Shown here: piece after piece, positions 2,956 to 62,012 of the stretch
Layout: every line of letters begins with the position of its first letter
How positions within the stretch are numbered: the stretch's first letter is position 1
NCBI RefSeq assembly: GCF_004010195.1
Contig: NC_057718.1
Location: 42,422,901 to 42,486,900 of the forward strand
Origin: Chiloscyllium plagiosum
Taxonomy: Eukaryota
Direction: 5' to 3'
DNA: 64,000 nt
The notes under the pieces: generated by a model
Database searches by the model: none
What the model saw: only the letters and a program-made list of their open reading frames with translations
Told to the model about the DNA's origin: nothing
Position numbers and translations under genes: made by a program

Positions 2956-3769
2956 AATTTCAAGCTCATTATTTTTTTTTTAATGAATGTGTGCTTTGTT
3001 TGCCATGTTTTCCTGTGTAAAAGTTCAAATTAAGATGCATTCATAGCACTGTCTGTTTCACTTAAGTTTTATAAAATGTTAATCCAAACATGCTAGCTGA
3101 GAAAGTATTTTGAAAATAAATAATCAAAATGATTTCAAGACTTTTGCAATGGAACATATTGTCACCCTGTTGTTACTTATTTTCGGCACTCCAGTTTTTG
3201 ATACTGAATAAACCAAATACAAGTTAGGAGAAAACTGCCAACTAAACTATTTAATTAGAGAATTAGAATTAGAGAAATCATTAACAGGACTTCTGCAGAA
3301 ATTGTCAGGATATTGTCTGGAGCTGGGACATTGGTGCAAATTTGAGTTTGGGTTTGTTGAAGCAGTGTACTATGATTCTACCTCGTATTACCCATGTTCT
3401 AACACTGATATCCTTTTATTCGGGCTGTTCAACAAAATAAAACTATTTGCCTTTGGCACGATGTGCTTTATGATATCCAGAGATTCCTACTTTAATTATT
3501 GAGGCTGAATTCAGAAAAAGCTTCACAAGATAGCAGGGAATTAATTTGGCAAATGCCCTTGAATAGGCCAGAGAATCATACTGCATGATTTGTTACAGCA
3601 CCTTGATATGGCCTCCTCATTTTGTGTTATGTTTGCAATCCAGGCAAAAAATCCTGTTGATTAGTTGCATGCATTAGCAGATGGTCAAAACTGGTAAGTC
3701 ACTGACATTATTTGAAACTAGCCGAGAATTCTAAAAAGGATGTATATTGTTGCTGCATAGGTGCTGAAT

Positions 3770-3845
3770 CTAGTGATTATAAATTCCCTGATTGGCGCTG
3801 TTAACATGGTGCAGTCAGGGACCCCTGACTGACAGATATAGACAC
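3770..3845 (+). mobile_element. Probable 5' part of a Gypsy LTR (ATTGG box, palindrome, TATA-like GATATA), interrupted by the Tx1-like array
   Basis: Promoter-like motifs directly upstream of the array, which is followed by Gypsy pol. The LTR assignment rests on recalled similarity to a shark LTR family and is unverified. Confidence 0.5.
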
Positions 3846-5828
3846 CCTGAGAGTTCGGGTGTCCTTGGAGAAGGAGCATGCGGTGTCCACCAACACCCTG
3901 GAGTTGTTCAGGGAGAGGTGGGCGCAGCAGGGAGTGGAGTGCATTATTTCCCCCTCCAACTCTATTTAGATTTAATCCCTGCCCTCCCCTTCACTGTTTG
4001 ATCACACAGCATCGTCCTTTTGATGTGAAGGGCACTGCTTGTCACTGCCACTCGGGTGTTTCCTTTCTTCCTGCTGGTGGAAATTTGAATAAAGATTCGT
4101 GCACCTTGTGTCTTTCACTGTGTCTCACACTTGCACACACACAACATGGGTGTGGTGGAGAAATATAAGCACTACCACGGTTAGGCAGTAGTGTGGGGGT
4201 TTAATAATAAAAAAACCAGGAGTGTCAGAAGTTCTGTAAGAAAAAAAAGGATAGACACCCTGGATCGTTAGGGCTGACTGCCTGTCCATCTTCCGCGGTT
4301 ACGTTAGAGCCCCAGTGTCCTTGGAGAAGGAGCACGCGGTCTCCACCAACACCCTGGAGTTGTTTAGGGAGAAGTGGGTGCCGCAGGGAGTGGAGTGCAT
4401 TATTTCCCCCTCCAATTCTATCTTGATTTAATCCCTGCCCTCCCCTTCACTGTTTGATCACACAGCATTGCCCTTTGATGTGAAGGGCACTGCTTGTCAC
4501 TGGCCACTCAGGTGTTTCCTTTCTTCCTGGTGGTGGAAATTGAATAAAGATTCATACACCTTGCGTCTCACACCTGCACACACACATGGGTGCTGGGGAA
4601 AAAATAAGCACTACTGCAGTTAGGCGGTAGTGTGGAGGTTAAAACAAAACAAAAAAGAAAAATAAATAGACAGCAGTGGATGTTAGAGCCCAGGTATCCT
4701 TGGAGATGGAGCACGCAGTCTCCACCAACACCCTGGAGTTATTCAGGAAGAGGTGGGTGCCACAGGGAATGGAGTGCATTATCTCCCCCTCCAACTCTAT
4801 TTTGATTTAATCCCTGCCCTCCCCTTCACTCTTTGGTCACACAGCATTGCCCTTTGTGAAGGGCACTGCTTGTCACTAGCCACTTGGGTTTTTCCGTTCT
4901 TCCTGGTGGTGGAAATTGAATAAAGATTCGTACATCTTGTGTCTCTCACTGTGTCTCACACCTGCACACACACAACATGGGTACTGGTAAGAATAAGCAC
5001 TACCGCAGTTAGGCAGTAGTGTGGGGGTTTAAAAGAAAAAAAAAAGACACCCTGGATCGCTAGGGCCGACTGCCTGCCCCTCTTCCGTGGTTACGTTAGA
5101 GCCTGGGTGTCTCTGGGGAAAGAGCACGCAGTGTCCACCAACATCCTGGAGTTGTTCTGGGAGAGGTGGGCTCCGCAGGGAGTGGAGTGCATTATTTCCC
5201 CCTCCAACTCTATTTTGATTTAATCCCTGCCCTCCCCTTCACTGTTTGATCACGATGCATTGCCCTTTGATGTGAAGGGCACTGCTTGTCACTGGCCACT
5301 CGGGTGTTTTCTTTCTTCCCGCTGGTGGAAATTTGAATAAACATTCGTGCACCTTGTGCCTTTCACTGTGTCTCTCACCTGCACACACACAACATGGGTG
5401 CTGGGGAAAAAAGAAAAAAAAAGAAAAGAAAATAAATAAACAGGACAGTCAGAGGTTCTGTTCACAAAAAAGAAAAATAGACAGGAGTGTCTACGTTAGA
5501 GCCCGGGTGTGTCTGGAAAAGGAGCACACGGTGTCCACCAATACCCTGGAGTTGTTCAGGGAGAAATGGGTGCCACAGGGAGTGGAGTGCATTATTTCCC
5601 CCTCTAACTCTATTTTGATTTATTTCCTGCCCTCCCCAACACTGTTTGATCACACAGCACTGCCCTTTGATGTGAAGGGCACTGCTTGTCACAGGCCATT
5701 TGAGTGTTTCCTTTCTTCCTGGTGGTGGAAATTTGAATAAAGATTCGTGCACCATGTGTCTTTCACTGTGTCTCACACCTGCATACACACAGCATGGGTG
5801 CTGGGGAAAAATAAGCACTACCACAGTT
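3841..5828 (+). mobile_element. Five tandem 5'-truncated copies (about 340-410 bp each) of a Tx1-like non-LTR retrotransposon 3' end
   Basis: Each unit encodes an ORF2-like C-terminus (…ADCLPLFRGYVRARVSLEKEHAVSTNTLELFRERWAPQGVECIISPSNSILI*), then a 3' UTR with AATAAA and hairpins. Units 1-4 end in an A-rich tail. Units start near 3841, 4254, 4681, 5046 and 5492. Confidence 0.75.
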
Positions 5829-8400
5829 GACCAGGAAGCAATTCCACCATTTTGCCTGCCCTGCCCTGTGCCATTTGCCTTGCAATGTTAAAGTAGGAAC
5901 AGAAATCAAGAGACTGGAAAATGAAGGAATCATCAAACCAGTACAGTTTGCAAAATTATCAGCACCAGTTGTACCAACTGGTCGTTTTACCTTTGTGGGG
6001 ATTTTAATTAGTAAACCATTTCTTGCAGCTGGATAAATATCCAATCCTGGGCATAGAGGAATTGTATGCAAAACTGGGTGGGTGGGTGGGTGTTTCCTTC
6101 ATGAAACTGGATATGAGCCATGCGTACGTGCAATTGCGGTTAGATGAGGATTCCCAAAAGGTATGTTACAATTAATACCCATAAAAGGTTCATAACAATA
6201 TGCGACTGCCATTTGGCGTAGTCAGCCTGTGCCATTTTTAGCAGACGATGGAGAACATTTTACAAGGTCTACCGCAGGTTGGCCTTTATCTGGATGAAAT
6301 GTAAATAATTGCCATGTTGTGGCAGCGCCGGTGTCGGACAAAGTCAGAAGTCTCATGACACCAGGTTATAGTCCAACAGGTTTATCTGAAATCACCTGAA
6401 GGAGCAGCTCTCCAAATCTTGTGATTTCAAGTAAACCTGTTCGATTATAACCTGGTGTCGTGTGACTTCTGACTTTGCTAATAATAGGAAAGACTAATAA
6501 AGAGCATTTAGAGAATTTGGAAATAGTCCTTAGATGTTTCTCCAAAATGGGTGTATGCCTTAGGAGGGAAAAATGTGTTCCGGACACCCTCAAGTGACCC
6601 ACTTGAGCTACAGAGCCGACAAGAGCAAGTTACACCCATTGAAAGATAAAGTGAGGATGACCAAAGATGCTGTGGCTTACTACTTTCTTGGGCTGGTGAA
6701 CTATTACAGAAAGTTCACATGTAAACTGATCTCCATCCTGGCACCTTTCCATCTGCTATTGATAAAGGGTCAGTCTTGGGAATGGTTTCACAGCCAAGAC
6801 ATAGTCTTTAGGGAAGTGAAGAAGCAGCTATCATCATCTAAGATGGTGACACCCAAAGAGCAGGATCTGGTAGTGACATGCAATGTCTCTCCTTATGATA
6901 TTGGATAGTGTTGGCTCACAGATGGCCCAATGGAGAGGAACGCCCAACAGCAGGACTTTGGCTGATTCAGAGCTCAAGTATGCCCACATAGAGCAGTCAT
7001 CTTTGGTGAGAGAATGTTTTACGGATGTAACTTTGTAATAGTAAACAGACCACAAACCTCTGCTATGGCTACTCAAAGAAGACAAGGCCCATAGCTTCAG
7101 GTCAAATTCAGGGATGGGCTCTCATTCTACGTGCATACTATTACAAATTACAACATTGTCCAGGAGGCAAAGTAGCAAATTCGGGTGTCTTGAACTGCCT
7201 CCCACCGCAGACACATCACTGGTGGTGCTGCCACTAGAAGAGTCAGTTCTGGTTTTAAACCTTCCAGTCACCACTGAGAGTATCATACTGTAGACATAAA
7301 AAGATCCAGTCCTGGCAAAACAAAAACAAATGGTAATGGGGGAAACAAATGAGTCATCACAACCAGAATTGAAATCTTTCAGGAGCCAGCAAGAATAGAT
7401 CGCTGCAGAGGATGGCATTTTATTATGGGGAGGAAGAGTGATTGCCCCGAGCAAAGGTCACTAACCGATACTGGCTGAACTCCACTAAGGGTCACCCAGA
7501 AGTGTCCAAAATGAAGATATTGGTGAGACGTTATGTCTGGTGGCCAGGATTGGATGCAGACATAGCTATGTTGGTGGGACAGTGGGCAGAATGCCAACAA
7601 GGACAAATATTATTGCCTGCAGAACCAGTCCCCACCCCATTCATGGGAACTGCCAGGCAAATCATGGACTCGGTTACATGTTGATTGGGCCGGCTCTTTC
7701 ATGGGATCAATCTTCTGAGGCATTGTGGACACCCAATCAGTGTGCAGGGCTTATTAGTCAAACATGAGGACAAAGATAGAAAAGCAGTGAATACCTTTTG
7801 CAATGATCTGACTCCAGGAAGTGTCACAGCCAACAGGCCTTCATTTACCATGAAGGAATTCATATATTGCCTAAATGACATTTGGCATACAAGGACAGCT
7901 CCATATTATCCATCATCTAACGGTCTGGTGTAAAGCGCAGTCCAAACTTTGAAGCCAGACTTAAAGAAATAGCTCACAGCTTCACTTGATACCAAACAAT
8001 CCTGATTGTCAAATCACCCTTCATGCAACTACAGGGACAGCTCCAGGAGAGTTACCAATGTGCAAATACTCTGCACCAGATTAAATCTGATCTCTCCAGA
8101 ACCCCAATGGGGAAGGGGGGGGGGGGCGAGGTGGAGCATCAATGCTGGAAACAAGATTCCTCTCAGCAAGAGAGACAGTTTACTTCAGGGGACAAAGCTT
8201 GGCATTGCAACCTCAGGGATGATCCTGCATGGTAAAGAGGCATGGTCGATGTGAGGATGGGTTCCATGACGTACAAAGTTGGGTAGGTGAGGCAGTTATT
8301 GAATAAGCACATCAACCACAGGAAAGCGGCAAACTCATGAATGAGGTAGGAGCAAAATATACCCGGCCCTCAGAACAGTTGGAGGCTGTCAGAAAGTGTG
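5826..8400 (+). mobile_element. Decayed Ty3/Gypsy LTR retrotransposon pol (RT-RNaseH-integrase); gag and protease absent
   Basis: Frameshifted motifs PVPFAL…EIKRLENEGIIKPV…APVVP, YLDE (RT), FLGLVNYYRKF, integrase zinc finger GHPEVSKMK…YVWWPGLD…C, and integrase core RTAPYYPSSNGL. Confidence 0.9.
6310..6477. mobile_element. Penelope-type terminal-repeat fold-back inserted in the Gypsy RT
   Basis: 57-bp inverted repeat (6339-6395 vs 6421-6477). Same family as 37340-37510 and 61880-62010. Confidence 0.75.
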
Positions 8401-8442
8401 GGTTCTCTCCCTCCACCTAACATTAAAGAAACCTTGGACTGA

Positions 8443-8630
8443 GATTTAGCATGGCCAATTCACCTAACCTGCACATTTTTGGACTGTGGGAGGAAACCGG
8501 AGCACCTGGAGGAAACCCACGCAGACACGGGGAGAATGTGCAAACTCCACACAGAGAGTCTCCAGAGGCGGGAATTGAACCTGGGTCTCTGGCACTGTGA
8601 GGCAGCAGTGCTAACCACTGTGCCGCCCAC
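8443..8630 (-). mobile_element. HE1-type shark SINE (5' portion)
   Basis: Reverse complement of the 17866 copy; tRNA-like A/B boxes and V-SINE-like core. Confidence 0.85.
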
Positions 8631-10311
8631 TATAAACTATCAGGGTTATAAGCTTTAAGTGACTTTTGAAAAAGAGAACAGGTGAACATAGGAGTGGATG
8701 GGAACTGATGTTTTCCAATGTTACATTGGTGGTGGAAAGGAGAAGTGTCTACCTTTTCCAGAGGGAGTCAAGACAGCATACAATCACAGATTTGGAAGGG
8801 AGTGGGAACAGACAGATATGGAAGTCAATGCAATGAACGCAGAGTTGCAAGATGTTTAATGATCTTACATGAGCAGGCAAGCTCAGTGAATGCCCCCTCA
8901 AATACCATATCTTCCAACTAAATCAGACTCAGTCACTGCTCAAATCACGTCAAATCATGCTCAATGACACAGTTCTTTCTTCCTTGCCAAGAGCAGGTTA
9001 TACACAAGAGCAGCGGGCATTAACCAGATGGAGAGAGGTAGCCTTTTATCCTGTAATTCACAGGGGGCAACACAGGAAACATTACCAACTGCAAAGTAGT
9101 CTTGGCTGAATCCAATCAAAACAATGGTATCCTTCTCCTCATATCCTACTTTTCCTCATCTCAGAATTTCTTCTGCCTACAAGTTGCAGATGGCATAAGC
9201 ATATTCCTCTTACTTTAATCCCTACTTCCTCATCACAACCTTTCCCCGTGACTTTTTACTTATCCAATACCCAAGAATCACAACCTCACTAGGCATTGGG
9301 ACAAGAGCATAATGTTGTACTTCACATTTAATACTTGTAAACACAGCTCAACTTTGCACATATTATCAAGAGGATAGCTTAGAAGCAGGGTCTGCATCTG
9401 ATGCGACACCAGCCACAAATGGATTGCATCTGTCAAGACATACAAAGCCTAATGATAGTGTAAGAAACTAGAGATCAATCTTTTTCCTTAATTCTAGATT
9501 TATGCAGAATGTAGCCTTTCTACCTTCTCCCTAAACAATTCCCAGTGTCCCACAAATGTGCTCAGGGCTGGGGATTGGAATAAGGCAGAGGTGAGCTCAC
9601 CAAGGTGTTGAGATCTTAACATTGTGCTCTGAAATACTGCAATGGGCAAGGATATAGAAAAAAGCTGATGTGTACACACAATGAAACACTTGAAGCATGG
9701 AACGCCTGCCAGAAAGCAGTCAAGGGAATGGAAGGTTCCGGTACCAACTTGGCACAATACTTTGAGCAGAACTGGAACTCCATCCTTTCTAGCATGATCA
9801 AATCCTTTTGTCCACTTGGTGGTCCCAAACATGACAAAGCAGATCATGGTGGATGCCACTAGAAGTCTTGCTACAAAAGTTGAGATTCCTTGCGTGTCAG
9901 GTCAACTAAACTTGATGCAAGCTCAAACTGTTATGCAAGGTCCAACAACTGCCAATATGGTTGTGAATGCTGCAGACTGTCTTGTTCACCATCAGATTAC
10001 CATGATGGCATGAGGCTGAGGCATCACCCTGATTGAGTGGCACTGGTACATTAACAGAAACTTGTCTTGTTCTCTCAGCATTACTGATTTTCGTCTCTTA
10101 GCCCTAGTCATTCTAGTTGTGAAAGTTAGTAGCCTTCCAACAACCATCCTGCAGTTTGCAGAAGTACATTGGAGCAGGAAGACAGAGAAAGGCAGTCAGA
10201 ATGGATGTAAAGGAAACCAATCAGTTTGCTACTGCCCAATCCACTGCACATTATTCTGTAATAGTATGGAATCTCAAAGGTTTGAGCAACAGGTGAATAG
10301 CAGCTACACAG

Positions 10312-10414
10312 AAGAGTCAAGATTAGGGTGGTGCTGTAAAAGCACAGCAGGTCAGGCAACATCTGAGGAGCAGGAAAATCAACATTTCGGGCAAAAGCCC
10401 TTCATCAAGAATGA
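10312..10414 (-). mobile_element. PLE family A terminal-repeat fragment with a degenerate hammerhead motif
   Basis: Reverse complement of 12320-12420. Confidence 0.75.
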
Positions 10415-10439
10415 GCAGGCAGCTACACGTAAGCTATAG

Positions 10440-10860
10440 CAGGCACGTGAATGGTGTCTGCCACTAACAGGATGCTGATGACAAACCAAAAAGACATTCT
10501 ACCTGCAGACAAGTGAGTAATGTGGTGTATGAATTTCAGTGTTGGTATGATACCAAGTATCTAGACTGAACATCCCCAATATTGGAGGATCCTAACAAAC
10601 AGCACATACCTTTGGCTGTTCAGAACAAGCAATGTACTGATCAAAGTACATTGCAAAGTTTGCAACACAATGTCCAAAATGAGATGTTAATCCACAATCT
10701 TACAACATTTGATGTATAATATAGACTGTGCAAAGAATTACATTAACTGATTTAGGATTGTCAACTGGGCTTGCAGTTGAATGCACTTGTGTATTAATGA
10801 ACAAGGTCTTTTTTTTTGCAGACAGAAGTTACTGCACCTATTTCAACTCAACATAGCAGG
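10440..10860 (+). mobile_element. Old GIY-YIG-encoding (Penelope-like) 3' fragment, resuming after 12455
   Basis: Degenerate SNVVYEFQC…Y motif near 10515-10570. Confidence 0.5.
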
Positions 10861-10864
10861 TGAC

Positions 10865-12445
10865 ATCCAATCCCTCTACACCTCCATCCGCTATGACCAG
10901 GGCCTCCAAGCCCTCAGTTTCTTCCTCTCCTGACGTCCCTACCAGTACCCTTCCACTGACATTCTCATTAGTTTGGCTGAACTGGTCCTCACCCTTAGCA
11001 ATTTCTCCTTCGAATCCTCCCACTTCCGCCAGACCAAAGGGGTAGCCATGGGTACCCGCATGGGCCCCAGCTAAGCCTGTCTCTTTGTTAGCTACGTAGA
11101 ACAGTCCATCTTCCGTAATTACACTGGCAACACTCCCCACCTCTTCCTCCACTACACTGATGAGCCACCTCATCCTCCCGTGAAGACGTTGAGCAGTTCA
11201 TCAACCTCGCCAGCACATTCCACCCTGACGTTAAATTCACCTGAACCATCTCTGACACCTCCCTCCCCTTCCTGAACCTCTCCATCTCCATCAATGATGA
11301 CTGACTCAATACTGATATTTTTTACAAACCCACCGACACCCACAGCTACCTGGATTACATCTGTTCCCACTTTACCTCCTGTAAAAATGCTATCCTGTAT
11401 TCCCAATTCCTCCGCCTCTGCCATATCTGCTTCCAGGAGGACCAGTTCCACTACAGAACACACCAGATGGCCTCTTTCTTTAAATACCATAATTTCCCTC
11501 CCATGTGGTTGAAGATGCCCTCCAAAGCATCTCATCCACATCCCGCACTTCTGCCCTCAAACCCCACCCCGCCAATTGCAACAAGGACAGAACACCCCTG
11601 GTCCTCACCTTCCACCCACCAACCTCCACATAAACTGCATCATCCGTTGTCATTTCCGCCACCTACAAATGGACCTCACCACCAGCAATACATATCCCTC
11701 CCCACTCATATCCATTTTCCGCAAAGACCGTTCCCTTTGTGACTACCTGGTTAGGTCCACGCGCCCCCCCCCAACAACCCACTCTCCCCTCCTGGCACCT
11801 TCCCCAGCCACCTCAGGAATTGCAAAACATGTGCCCACACCTCCCCATCACCTCCATCCAAGGCCCCAAAGGAGCCTTCCGCATCCAAAGTTTCATTTGC
11901 GCATCCACCAATGACATTTATTATATCTGTTGTTCCCAACGTGGTCTCCTTTACATTGGGGAGACCAGACGCCTTCTCGCAGAGGGCTTTAGGGACCATC
12001 TCCGGGACACCCGCACCAATCAAACCCAACGTCCCATGGCTGAACATTTCAACTCCCCCTCCTGCTCTGCCAAGAACATGCAGGTCCTGGGCCTCCTTCA
12101 CCGCCACTCCCCCACCGCCAGACACCTGGAGGAAGAACGCCTCATCTTCCGCCTCAGAACACTTCAACTCCAGCCGATCTTCTTTCCCACCTATCTGCTT
12201 CACCCTCCTCTCCAACCTATCACTTTCATCCCCACCTCCATCCACCTATTGCACTCTTACCTACCTTCTCCCCAGCCCCACCCCCTCCCATTTATCTCTC
12301 CACCCTGGAGGCTCCCAGCCTCTTTCCTGATGAAGGGCTTTTGCCCAAAGCGTTGATTTTCCTGCTCCTCGGATGCTGCCTGACCTGCTGTGCTTTTCCA
12401 GTCCACTCTAATCTTGACTCTGATCTGCAGTCCTCACTTTCGCCA
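10865..12445 (+). mobile_element. 5'-truncated Penelope-like element (family A): RT, GIY-YIG endonuclease and terminal repeat
   Basis: RT motifs DIQSLYTSI and QTKGVAMGTRMGPS. GIY-YIG motif IYYICCSQRGLLYIGETRR…AEHFN. Flanked by the direct repeat AGCAGGTGAC (10855-10864 and 12446-12455). Confidence 0.9.
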
Positions 12446-13359
12446 AGCAGGTGACTGCCAATCACTGGTTCATTAGTAAAGGCATCTTGAGAAATCACAT
12501 CAAAACTGTCAATCATCATTAATTGATATATCCTTCATGGCATCACCTCCCTCAATCTGTGTCCACTTGCCAGCCAATCACCAGTCTCCTCTCAAACAGT
12601 CTAAATATCGGCTCTCTCTTTAATTGCTGTTGGAAATAGAAAGTTTTGCGGATGGAATTAAATAAGGAAGAAGGGGTGGAGATTCAGTTGAAACATAAAA
12701 TGTTAGACTGGGTGTAATTGCTTTTTGGATTGAATTGCCTGTTTATGTGCTGTATACTCCATGTAATTTAGATAAGAAAACATCTTATAATAAAACTGTA
12801 AATACTTGACAGTTCTATTAAATTAGGCAGTGGGGACGAGGTGTTGGGAAGAAAGGTGAAGAGAAGTGGGATTCTGCTTGGTGCTTAACATGTTCACCTC
12901 TACAAGCTTAAGAGTGTTGGCTGGAGCACGGAGCTCCATAAATTACAGCTATGTCATCAAATGAGTCTTGCACACTGAAGGCTGGCACAATCTGCCTGCT
13001 CTGCATCCTTCCAGTAGATACTAACTGCACAAATGATACTATTTTAAAACTAGGATAGCATCAATAGCACTATTTCTCACAAATACATATGCATGGCTCA
13101 AACAATTCTGGATCAGAATGTGTCCATGAAAATTGGGCACTACCAAACCTAGAGGTATGTTAGCTTGGCTAAATATCCAAATATTTGTATTTAAAATTCC
13201 AGTAGGTTGTAATAAATCCAGATTTTGTCCATAAAATTAAAATTAATTAACATGAAGATTGAAGTTCTTTAAATGAAAATAAAACATCATTCCATTTTTA
13301 ATGCATCTTTGTCAAGAGCTAAGTTAATTAGAATTGCCTAATAGAATCAAGGTCTTTAC

Positions 13360-27835: not shown

Positions 27836-29049
27836 CTAGTACTGTTGGGACTGCAATCAGTCCCAGGGTGAAGGTCTCAATTGTTTCCAGATTCAGGTAA
27901 GTCAGATTTATTACGTTGGCTGGATTTCAAGGTCTCTAAAGATGGAAGGCTGAGGGTTACTCATGATATGGAAAGGGAACAGCCTGGAGATAGTAGTCAA
28001 TTTCCTTCCCAGACTTCCAAAAACCTGCAAAAAAATTTAGGCAAGCCTAAATGTATTATGACAAAAACTATCTCCACTTCAATGACATTAGCATTGTTGA
28101 ATCCTTGATTACCAACTTCCATTAACAAGAAACTAAAGTGGACAATCCATATTAATAACATGGATAAAACAGCAGATCAGTGACTTGGAATTCAGAGGTA
28201 AGTAACTTGCCTTCCATCTTTAACACCTACACACCATTTACAAGTACAATTCAGGAGTATGATGAAATACACTCCAATTGCCTGGAGTAGTGGATCTCCA
28301 ATGTTATCCAGGAAAAGGCAAACTGTTATATCGGCACCCCGTACTCTATGTTAAACATTCACTCCCTTCACCATTAATGCATAATTGCAACACCGTATGC
28401 CATATGCAAGATGGGTGACCTCTAGCACCAGAGAAGAACAAAAACAGCAGCCATATGGGTACAGCAAATAACATGCAAGTTCCCTTCGAAACTACACACC
28501 ATCCTGACTTGCAACTAAATTACCATTGCTTCACCGTCACTGGATCAAAATCCTGGAACACTGTTCCTAACAGCATTGTAGGTGTACTTGAATCATTCAT
28601 AACAACAGCGTCATTCCGTGAAACAAGAAGAAAAAAAGTTAAATCTCTTTGAACTTTTAGTTTGCGTAGTTGCAGAGCGAAGCTGACGAAGGAACAGTAC
28701 TCGGAAAGCTTGTGATTTCAAATAAACTTGCTAGGCTACAATCTGATGTCTCGTGACTTCCGACAGAAAGAAAAGGGCAAAGAATACTGGATCAAACCCA
28801 TTTAGTTTTGTGTTTTTAATTAATCTATTTTGTCTAATTCATCTATTCACATATTCAGATATCTTTATCTTTGAATGTTACTTTTTTGTCAGATGCTAGT
28901 TAGTCTCTAATGAATCATAGGATAGGCAAAATCAACGTTTCGGGCATGAGCCCTTCATCAGGAATGTAGGGGATGGGGGAAAGGGGGTTGAGAGATAAAT
29001 GGGGGGGGGGTGGGGGTGGGGGGGGGGAGTGGGACTGGAGGGAAGGTAG

Positions 29050-29326
29050 NNNNNNNNNNNNNNNNNNNNNNNNNNNNNNNNNNNNNNNNNNNNNNNNNNN
29101 NNNNNNNNNNNNNNNNNNNNNNNNNNNNNNNNNNNNNNNNNNNNNNNNNNNNNNNNNNNNNNNNNNNNNNNNNNNNNNNNNNNNNNNNNNNNNNNNNNNN
29201 NNNNNNNNNNNNNNNNNNNNNNNNNNNNNNNNNNNNNNNNNNNNNNNNNNNNNNNNNNNNNNNNNNNNNNNNNNNNNNNNNNNNNNNNNNNNNNNNNNNN
29301 NNNNNNNNNNNNNNNNNNNNNNNNNN
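29050..29326. other. Assembly gap (N run)
   Basis: Run of N characters. Confidence 1.
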
Positions 29327-29354
29327 CTCAACCCCCTTTTCCCCCATCCCCTAC

Positions 29355-29390
29355 ATTCCTGATGAAGGGCTCATGCCCGAAACGTTGATT
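29355..29390 (+). ncRNA. Minimal hammerhead ribozyme motif (PLE family A); mirror copy on minus at about 28931-28966
   Basis: CTGATGA-A-GGGC TCAT GCCC-GAA-ACGT-T-GA. Conserved core, stem II and palindromic ACGT stem III; very short stem I. Confidence 0.65.
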
Positions 29391-30348
29391 TTGCCTGTCC
29401 TCGGATGCTGCCTGAATTGCTGTGCTCTTCCAGCACCACTGATCCAGAATCTGGTTTCCAGCATCTGCAGTCATTGTTTTTACCTCGTGTTTTTACCCTA
29501 TCTAATGAATCATAGCCTTGTTCAGCTCGGTGTCTCCATTTCATACTGCTTATTTTAACGAAATTGTTATATTTATCTATTGCCTTTATAGGTTTCCTTA
29601 TTCTATTATAATTTACGTTTTATTAAATCCTCCCACCTCAGTTCCTACTCCTATACATTTTCTTTAGGTTACTAAAGCTCGATGTACCACAAGTTTTTCT
29701 AGTCATCAGGGCACTGGTCTCAACTCACTTAGAGTTTCACCCAAACAAAAACACAGAAATCGCTGGAAAAAAAACTCAGCTGATCTGGCAGTATCTGTGG
29801 AGAGAAAGCAGACTTAGCGTCTTGGGTTCAGTGACCCACTGGAGTTTCTGTTTTTGTTTCAGATTTCCAGCATCCGTAGTTCGTATTTGTCCACCCATTA
29901 CTAAGGAACAGCTCCGTATCTCTACAGTACTCGAATTAATGTTTCCCGAATCAAAACCCATAGATCTCACACCACTCCCTCATCCACATATTTCACTATC
30001 TAATCTGATCTGCCTGCATGTAACAAAATATATTAACTGTGAGGTACTGTATGTTAATTCCAATTCAGCAATAACTCTTCCCACTCAAGTTCCAGTGTCA
30101 AAGCCGAGCAGCCTTCAGGTGCAGCATACGAAAGTATAACATTAATGTCATTCTCGACTATCTTTACTAAGACATTAGCCACATTTTACATAAAGTAGAA
30201 CACAGGACACCAGTTAATCTCTCACGCACACTACTTTTGAAACCATCTTGAGTTGACAGGGGAAGGGGTGCAACTGTAAATAATTCCTCAACGGCAGTGA
30301 AGGTCTTTCTTCTACCCTTTTTTGCATAGTGCTTTCTCCTTTCCTTAC

Positions 30349-30416
30349 CTGTTTCTGCGGAAAAATTCCTCTTCCAGTCCCTGCAGCTGCATCTTCAGCG
30401 TCAACGCAGTCGCCAT
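30349..30416 (-). CDS. SPATA17: SPATA17 coding exon 1 (MATALTLKMQLQGLEEEFFRRN+AG), 68 nt, phase-2 end
   Basis: ATG in AAGATGG context at 30416; donor AG|GTAAGG at 30348. Resembles the human SPATA17 N-terminus as recalled (MATLARLQ...YYFRNS). Splices in frame to the next three exons. Lies head-to-head with GPATCH2, as in human. Confidence 0.9.
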
Positions 30417-31030
30417 CTTTAGTTGTGGCTGTTGCTATGGTTACAGGGCGAGTCCACTGCACCCGCGCAACTCCGAGCAGCGGCTGCAACGAGCAGGCAA
30501 GACACTGAAATCTGATCGTCGTGTTCGTTTTGTTTCGGAATAGCGACAGACACTTTTTAATCTGCCGTCCGGGTTGTCTGGAAACGTGAGGAAAGGCCGA
30601 CGTGGGCCCAGTCGAATGGTTTGGGCCTCCTGCCTCCTTCCGGACGTTGGCTTTTCTCTTCCCGTCGTCCCTCGGGCTGGACATGGTGGCTCCTGGAGTT
30701 CGTTAGGGCCAATGTCTGACAGTTGTGTATTATCGCAGTTGCAGTAGCTAGACTCCTCTTTGAAACACCGTGGATGTTCGCTGCGACGAGCCAACAAGCT
30801 TTGCGTAATCCGGCTCGTGGCTGGTGAGTACCCGACTCCTCAAGCGTCCGTTTCTATCCTACGCGGTGCTTTGGCTCACATGAGTCTGCAGAGCCGGGGC
30901 AAGCGGGGAGGCCCCTGCTACCTGCTTTGCTGCATCTCGTAAGTAACTTCGATCCTTCACATGATCTGGAAGGGATTTTGTTGAAAGTAATATTGCACTT
31001 CTGCATCACCTGCCCCGCCCCCATTTCACT
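30400..31030. promoter_or_regulatory. CpG-rich bidirectional promoter shared by SPATA17 and GPATCH2 (357 bp between the ATGs)
   Basis: Visibly higher CpG density than the AT-rich flanks. RFX X-box-like GTTGCTATGGTTAC (30431-30444) and GTTGTCTGGAAAC (30573-30585). YY1-like CGCCATCTT (30411-30419), ETS-like CTTCCGG (30637-30643), CCAAT (30709-30713), GC box near 31013. Confidence 0.8.
30774..30823 (+). CDS. GPATCH2: GPATCH2 coding exon 1 (MFAATSQQALRNPARG+TG), 50 nt
   Basis: ATG at 30774; canonical donor TG|GTGAGT at 30824. Resembles the recalled human MFGAAGRQ...NSW with a split Trp codon. In frame with the exon at 46184. Confidence 0.85.
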
Positions 31031-37321: not shown

Positions 37322-37510
37322 GATTTGGAGAAGCTGGCAGTGGACTGGGGTGTACAGAGTTAAAAATCACACAACACCAGGTTATAGTCCAACAGGTTTA
37401 ATTAGAAGCACTGGCTTTCGGAGTGCTGCTCCTTCATCAGGTGGTTGTGGAGTAAGACACTTTGTGAAGGAGCAGCGCTCCGAAAGCTAGTGCTTCCAAT
37501 TACACCTGTC
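37322..37510. mobile_element. PLE family C terminal repeat (minus) with a short inverted plus copy
   Basis: Reverse complement of 61880-62010. 37464-37510 is inverted relative to 37390-37437. Confidence 0.8.
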
Positions 37511-46183: not shown

Positions 46184-46888
46184 GCCCTGCAGAGCAATGG
46201 AGGAGCTGGTTCATGATCTGGTCTCTGCTTTGGAAGAAACCTCTGAACACATGAGGGGATGTCCAGAGTTTGGCGATGAAGCATCCCGGAATTCAGCTGC
46301 ATCCCTTCTAAAGCGCCAGGCTAGGAAAAGGAGAGGCAAAAAGAGGAGGTCAGAAAGTGGACATCACATTTGGGAGCATGGCCACTGCATGAGTGAAGGC
46401 TCCGAATCTAGCTTTGATGAGGCAATCCGGGACTACAAAGAAAATAACACTTACAGTGACTCAGATGACCACTTGATAGTTGCCAAACGTCTGTCATCCC
46501 TGAACGTAACAGCCATTAGGGGAAAGCGGCATTCATGGCACGAGTCTGATTCTGTCACCGACAGTAACTTAGGTGGTAGATCTTTGCGAAGGAGAAGGAA
46601 GGTCAAACGTATGGCTGTAGATCCACCAGCAGAGGTCAGTAATGTACTTCACCCACTGCCCCAGGGCAAAGCTCCAGTCTTGGACTTGAACAGACACCAG
46701 GCACAACCAAACCAACTCTGCTTCCAACTCCAAGTCCAGGAGATCAGTAAGGACAAGATCATCAAGAGAAAACGGCTAGAAGTCCCAGATGATGGAGTTG
46801 TTGTGGAAAGTGAAGAAATGTGCAATACAAATAAGAACAAAATGGAGTATGAGGAACAGAAAGGCTCAGATGATAACATGAGTGACAG
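46184..46888 (+). CDS. GPATCH2: GPATCH2 (G-patch domain-containing protein 2) coding exon 2, 705 nt
   Basis: Polypyrimidine tract plus AAG| acceptor; donor AG|GTTATT. Translation includes MEELVHDLVSALEE, KRQARKRRGKKRRS, SDSDD, WHESD, LRRRRKVKRMAVD and KMEYEEQKGSDDNMSD, all matching vertebrate GPATCH2. Confidence 0.96.
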
Positions 46889-61879: not shown

Positions 61880-62012
61880 TACTCCACAACCACCTGATGA
61901 AGGAGCAGCGCTCCGAAAGCTAGTGCTTCCAAATAAATCTGTTGGAGTTTAACCTGGTGTTGTGATTTTTAACTTTATACACCCCAGTCCAACACTGGCA
62001 TCTTCAAATCAT
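61880..62012 (+). mobile_element. PLE family C terminal repeat
   Basis: Homologous to 37322-37452, 6339-6477 and 28683-28765. Confidence 0.8.
61891..61925 (+). ncRNA. Apparently intact minimal type-I hammerhead ribozyme motif
   Basis: CAC-CTGATGA-A-GGAGC AGC GCTCC-GAA-AGCT-A-GTG. Stem I CAC/GTG, complete core, 5-bp stem II, palindromic AGCT stem III, UA cleavage site. Confidence 0.75.

Follow-up and report, generated by a model that had tools for sequence, protein, structure and literature searches.

Five LINE 3' ends in the same orientation, 340–385 bp each, were identified by repeat-family detection and alignment at one locus of the shark Chiloscyllium plagiosum, in a window of 64 kb (that is, the whole stretch of DNA analyzed here). 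This locus is probably an old hot spot for insertion of a highly abundant LINE of the Tx1 clade, situated within a dispersed repeat that is itself probably an LTR of the Gypsy type; the site appears to be preferred by the element, with exclusivity unproven. The same nick was re-used, with target duplications of varied length and poly(A) tails, and the preference is derived from this locus and from two inferred donors.

Layout of the array and identity of the element

All features of the array lie on the forward strand. It begins with the left part of the target repeat (3775–3844), probably an LTR promoter region, which ends in the nicked motif ATAGACA and whose start is approximate (depth bin 3770–3814). 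Unit 1 (u1; 3845–4202, by alignment) consists of a Tx1-like ORF2 C-terminus and 3' UTR, and is followed by its A-rich tail (4203–4216, with AATAAA at 4206) and by a piece of the downstream target with an A-tract on each side, interpreted as a 3' transduction (T1; 4217–4237). A 7-bp target duplication, ATAGACA (4251–4257), precedes unit 2 (u2; 4258–4640), which has the same derived head as unit 4 and whose 3' end is complete, with a terminal hairpin. Unit 3 (u3; 4679–5030, by alignment), with a second head type and a complete 3' end, is preceded by a 13-bp duplication (4666–4678), and unit 4 (u4; 5050–5406, by alignment), with the head of u2 and an ORF2 end open to a stop at ~5221, by a worn duplication, AGACA (5045–5049). 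The tail of u4 is short and ends at an internal A-run, as some other copies of the element may do. A second downstream-target piece between two A-tracts, again read as a 3' transduction (T2; 5436–5465), and a 15-bp duplication (5477–5491) then lead to unit 5 (u5; 5492–5828, by alignment), which carries the second head type and whose 3' end is cut, presumably by a deletion, at 5828, where pol-like sequence begins. This sequence (5826–8418) is a broken Gypsy-like pol remnant with many stops and frame changes.

Pairwise identity between the units was 87.2–93.8% across 274–293 alignment columns. Each of them closes an open reading frame and continues into a 3' UTR of ~200 nt with hairpins (hairpin z of −4.2 in u2, −2.7 in u3 and −1.1 in u1), and neither the unit nor the left flank was found a further time in the 64-kb window. 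The five spacer pieces named in the original prediction were all found where it had placed them; its inventory had overlooked two more target pieces, at 4251–4257 and 5045–5049. Several tests indicated that the spacers are not a chance resemblance. The pieces at 4217 and 5441 match at 18 of 21 bases, a level reached by 2 of 2,000,000 random pairs of 21-mers from the window; AGACA precedes all five unit starts, with a chance of ~4e-7 for the four units after the first (from the frequency of AGACA in the window); and a 15-mer search gave six matches, equaled in none of 100 shuffles. A 13-mer search by itself was not above chance (two matches, 55 of 100 shuffles). Neither the long spacers nor the left flank could be aligned to the unit body (best local scores 12/42, 12/50 and 14/140).

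An initial protein search with the 53-aa ORF end gave no match, and the same peptide used as a HMMER query retrieved 16 relatives among 1.84 billion representative proteins, from which P0005 and P0007 were discarded as repetitive false matches. Of the 10 matches looked up, four are assigned to Rhincodon typus and one to Chiloscyllium punctatum, in keeping with a shark host. P0019 (622 aa) showed 57% identity with the ORF-end peptide of the units and, over 99% of its own length, 41% identity with the Xenopus Tx1L ORF2 (P0021; E 1.5e-138), whereas its match to human L1 ORF2p reached only ~30 bits. When the unit peptide was compared directly with the Tx1L C-terminus, 17 of 42 residues were identical (40%, E 8e-7). 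On this protein similarity the element family is classed as Tx1-like, because the chain through P0019 leads to the ORF2 of Tx1L and the C-terminal match links the units to it directly; the kinship proposed for the tails in the original prediction is thus upheld by both routes. ORF2 is nearer to Tx1L than to L1 directly for the C-terminal 42–58 aa, and via P0019 for the C-terminal half. It should be noted that P0019 is a 57% relative and not the family itself, that its RVT_1 and zf-RVT matches were weak and below the cut-off, and that the APE region was covered by no window-linked relative except Tx1L. Only the ORF2 end is present in the window, which contains no RT or endonuclease of the Tx1-like family. 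A poly(A) tail, 5' truncation and target-site duplication are all present in the units. The Pfam search with the unit peptide returned no family, Rfam returned two matches far under the gathering scores and no snRNA head on the units, and neither Tx1 nor pol relatives were detected in viral or prokaryote contigs. As a separate observation, the CutA domain of a Chiloscyllium punctatum CutA isoform model (P0008, XP_072422303.1) contains, midway along, ~34 aa of the ORF2 end of this Tx1 element, which is either an exonization or an annotation artefact.

The target repeat and the adjoining pol remnant

The target carries the promoter-like motifs ATTGG (at 3791) and a TATA-like GATATA (at 3835) and is, by read depth, a dispersed multi-copy repeat. 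Read evidence was taken from 4 of the 24 listed runs (runs with small shares were left out) over 2960–4304, which comprises the left flank, u1, T1 and the u2 head; u3–u5 and the pol junction lie outside this stretch. Raw-read depth was 0–1 up to 3769 (0.33 on the flank), rose to 155 at 3770–3814 and reached ~4,300 on the unit. With a single-copy depth of 0.33–0.6, of which 0.33 is measured and the rest assumed, these values correspond to ~260–470 detectable target copies and ~7,000–13,000 unit (tail) copies; summed contig depths were not taken as copy numbers. Within u1, depth was halved between bins 4130–4174 and 4175–4219, and in the same part (4152–4200) contig loose ends at 4152 were A-richer than the raw-read consensus and the indels of u1 itself likewise break read alignments. 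Indels at 3996 and 4058 serve as subfamily markers.

A joint from 3839 to 4213, corresponding to an empty site, was present in one contig of organism C (run X10) and absent from the other three of the four runs; its shorter side is 26 nt, and contig joints of this type often derive from repeats. The original prediction that the spacers are pieces of one foreign target is supported; this target has many copies, and its uninterrupted form was observed a single time (one contig, one of four runs). Another organism C contig is orthologous to the locus, aligning over 2969–3850 (46 differences, 35 gaps), and spans the u1 junction, so that the start of the array is older than the split between organisms A and C. 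A contig of organism B (run X7) has three different letters at the u1 junction (3845–3847) and ends ~32 nt further on; its junction may be paralogous, or the site may be empty, and this contig was set aside. The target motif was not found in viral contigs, and four metagenome matches, which had only the 18-mer in common with the window, were taken as chance.

We consider it probable that the target repeat is an LTR, and it is likely the LTR of the adjoining Gypsy-like pol (5826–8418). The domain search of the remnant yielded two relevant matches from 12 fragments, RVT_1 at 6466–6594 (E 0.008, below the cut-off) and Integrase_H2C2 at 7442–7681 (E 1.8e-8, above the cut-off), which bear out the earlier claim that a Gypsy-like pol follows the array in the same orientation. 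The order is reverse transcriptase and then integrase, also in the orientation of the array, and such an order rules out Copia, not BEL/Pao. A similar promoter sequence occurs, as we presume, in Gypsy-type LTRs of sharks. No 3' LTR or second copy of the left flank was found within the 64-kb window, and this locus has lost the right half of the target; the joining of pol to the cut u5 would be the expected result of one deletion that removed the rest of the LTR and gag. Alternatively, a longer deletion could have brought an unrelated pol alongside the target.

Some further features of this region were also observed. The Gypsy-like RT region is broken at 6339–6477 by a 139-bp insert with inverted arms of 57 nt (89%), the halves of which match a dispersed repeat at 28688–28764, 37354–37509 and 61898–61976, and the pol remnant is followed at ~8420–8627 by what we take to be an HE1-like SINE. 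A perfect inverted pair of 25 nt (272–296 and 1065–1089, 768 nt apart) may mark the termini of a non-autonomous DNA transposon of some age. A 277-base assembly gap (29050–29326) is located between inverted copies of one repeat end (28919–28992 and 29327–29401, 97%). The window also contains a GC-rich promoter-like island (30400–30900) and a coding exon (46184–46888), which we take to belong to GPATCH2, a gene presumably arranged head-to-head with SPATA17 in mammals; if this label is right, the array would lie antisense in an intron of a minus-strand gene.

Origin of the spacers and relations among the units

Two kinds of spacer could be distinguished: pieces of 5–15 bp preceding every unit, and two downstream-target pieces of 21–25 bp between A-tracts. 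The pre-unit pieces (7, 7, 13, 5 and 15 bp for u1–u5) all start at one motif, and the G at the position of 3841 is present in all five; these are target duplications. T1 and T2 correspond to the downstream half of the target with A-tracts on either side. The first 10 bases of T1 are identical to 5482–5491, T2 reads ATAAAC where the local target reads ATAGAC, and the G of 3841 is missing in T1, in T2 and in the empty-site contig. T1 ends 26 nt past the AATAAA of the first A-tract, and T2 ends 29 nt past the AATAAA at 5431. On these features T1 and T2 are best read as putative 3' transductions from donors at the same site of another target copy and, if so, they constitute evidence of targeting beyond this locus; the allele argument depends on one base and one contig. 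Long duplications around inserts consisting of A only were considered for T1 and T2 and rejected, the local G being missing, a decision that depends on the same base. The idea that the spacer is the normal 3' end of the element itself was also rejected, as at most ~0.7% of tail depth continued into a target piece; a minor donor may carry the spacer as part of its 3' end. Thus, the original view that the target is regenerated as a duplication applies to the short pre-unit pieces and not to the two long spacers, which with A-tracts on both sides resemble transductions.

The heads of the units suggested a somewhat more complex history. In total, 731 reads diverged before 4265, passing into upstream ORF2 sequence unlike the opening 7 nt of u2, and the u2 head was rare, being carried by at most ~32 of a depth of 1,113. 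u4 has both the head and the junction of u2, u1 has its first bases and then lacks ~45 nt, and the starts of u3 and u5 lie only a few bases apart. Because u1, u2 and u4 share this rare derived head, the five units were not each truncated independently, although five 5'-truncated tails, as first described, are indeed present. These heads may be explained either by re-mobilized short donors or by a very early local duplication, and both explanations need at least two insertions at one nick. Late tandem duplication of the DNA was rejected on the basis of the star-like unit bodies, in which each pair has 0–2 substitutions in common (none in u2/u4, two of CpG type in u3/u5). Other similarities cut across the head groups, with two substitutions and a gap shared by u2/u3, and two substitutions and a transduced piece by u1/u4. 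Divergence from the majority sequence was 2.7, 3.2, 6.6, 6.1 and 7.5% for u1–u5, and a test of equal unit age gave a chi-square p of 0.043; a post-hoc split of u1+u2 against u3–u5 (p 0.002) was chosen after viewing the data and was not used. The duplication lengths demand only that u3 was inserted before u4, with which the divergence ranks (u5, u3, u4, u2, u1) agree weakly.

Several of these features would be accounted for if one or two insertions had been multiplied early on by DNA duplication at the locus (of a dimer u2–u3/u4–u5, for instance), together with small deletions between A-tracts and gene conversion, and with little or no targeting: all five 5' ends fall within ~45 nt, though most genomic copies reach further upstream (the 731 reads above), u2 and u4 have an identical junction and head, the heads alternate as A', A, B, A, B, and the substitutions and gap common to u2/u3 would also be expected. 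The A-tracts at 4640–4667 and 5462–5478 have 15 nt in common, but an unrelated A-tract pair has 14, so that this likeness is weak. No two complete junctions are alike, however, u2/u4 have no substitution in common and u3/u5 only the two of CpG type, and unit ages appeared unequal in the above test. On such a scheme a minimum of three additional deletions would be needed, two insertions at one nick would be required all the same, and T1 and T2 would have to be added; we regard it as unlikely.

Repeated insertion at a preferred site could proceed as follows, by analogy with established target-primed reverse transcription. Within the A/T-rich TATA-like motif, the ORF2 endonuclease would nick the bottom strand, and the T-rich 3' end at the nick would prime on the poly(A) tail. 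A second-strand cut 7–15 nt downstream would then duplicate the site, leaving it open to further insertion. T1 and T2 would have arisen by read-through from donors that occupied the corresponding site in a different copy of the target, and the five units, of at least two head types, would include some re-mobilized short donors or early local duplicates. A more speculative idea, to which we give a rather low chance, is that short Tx1 tails embedded in the LTR-like repeat are transcribed together with target sequence on either side and act as non-autonomous mini-donors, the target sequence in their RNA (the duplication at the 5' end and the read-through at the 3' end) helping to return new copies precisely to the same site. 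If this is true, targeting belongs to the target-embedded donors and not to the enzyme, and RNA-borne homology would be separated from endonuclease specificity as a cause of target choice, a distinction that could be counted in a genome with ~10,000 copies. It would also explain why the heads recur, why target pieces were transduced, and why arrays are dense in a family whose insertions are mostly at other places.

Specificity of the family and comparison with known Tx1 elements

The original prediction also held that the family is dedicated to this LTR, which now appears doubtful, since tail depth (~4,300) exceeded target depth (~155) by ~28-fold. A Tx1 family with strict sequence specificity and this Gypsy LTR as its sole target would agree with the position of all five copies of the 64-kb window at the target and with the two transduced pieces, both of which indicate donors in the same target; in addition, the number of target copies may be much under-counted, given the age and shortness of the local one. 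On the other hand, ~7,000–13,000 tail copies stand against ~260–470 detected target copies, and at most ~21 of a depth of ~2,850 at the tail end (~0.7%) continued from the tails into T1, a weak test in view of the variable A-tracts and the 21-nt side. Strict dedication is therefore improbable in our judgment, and a preference or subfamily effect fits the data better, bearing in mind that the depth figures are biased against the target by its old and short local copy and by the variable A-tracts.

The opposite explanation, in which the enzyme has no specificity and L1-like nicking at T-run/A junctions, poly(A) tails and an open promoter create a self-reinforcing hot spot, is compatible with a nick in an A/T-rich TATA-like motif, with the A-rich DNA that every new tail adds alongside, and with the fact that most copies showed no visible continuation into the target. 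We consider it very unlikely: all events re-used one nick despite the many T/A junctions in A-tracts and 3' UTRs, T1 and T2 indicate the same site in the donor loci, and the clade is known for sequence preference (PMC4494074). Site preference without dedication is thus the reading favored here.

With this array, a case from cartilaginous fish joins the few Tx1 families that land in other transposons; the landing site here is a TATA-like motif, and an insertion there would be expected to silence the host repeat as well. Insertion order and the relationships of sharks could be traced with the nested duplications and the orthologous junctions. No published account of a shark Tx1 element aimed at an LTR was found in a search that did not extend to Repbase, Dfam and most subscription papers. 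The LTR-preferring habit of Tx1 elements is already in print for crocodilians, and the shark array is a further example of described behavior.

According to PMC4494074 (Kojima, 2015), the crocodilian families Tx1-8_Crp and Tx1-4_AMi prefer groups of LTR retrotransposons, and a family is considered target-specific when >20% of its copies are flanked by the target. These two families resemble the shark family in belonging to Tx1 and in having, as the shark family probably does, LTR retrotransposon targets; they are found in another host lineage, and the comparison is by description only, as the text of the paper gives no LTR group or position. In the same source, sequential insertion is said to have stacked SINEU-3 copies in tandem at a single target duplication, and it was proposed that they may be transcribed together with the target. 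Like the shark array, SINEU-3/Tx1-Mar in Mariner-N4_AMi comprises short non-autonomous copies stacked at one target duplication, but SINEU-3 is reported there as 90% target-bound, whereas the shark family seems much less so and its units are plain LINE tails. Finally, Tx1L of Xenopus laevis is inserted in the DNA transposon Tx1D (PMC4494074 and PMC6719617), and Tx1 targeting of Tx1D and the Tx group is named in PMC6719617 and PMC3747384. Tx1L is the closest named protein to the shark family and likewise has another transposon as its target; its target is a DNA transposon, whereas that of the shark family, of which only the ORF2 end is present, is an LTR-like promoter.
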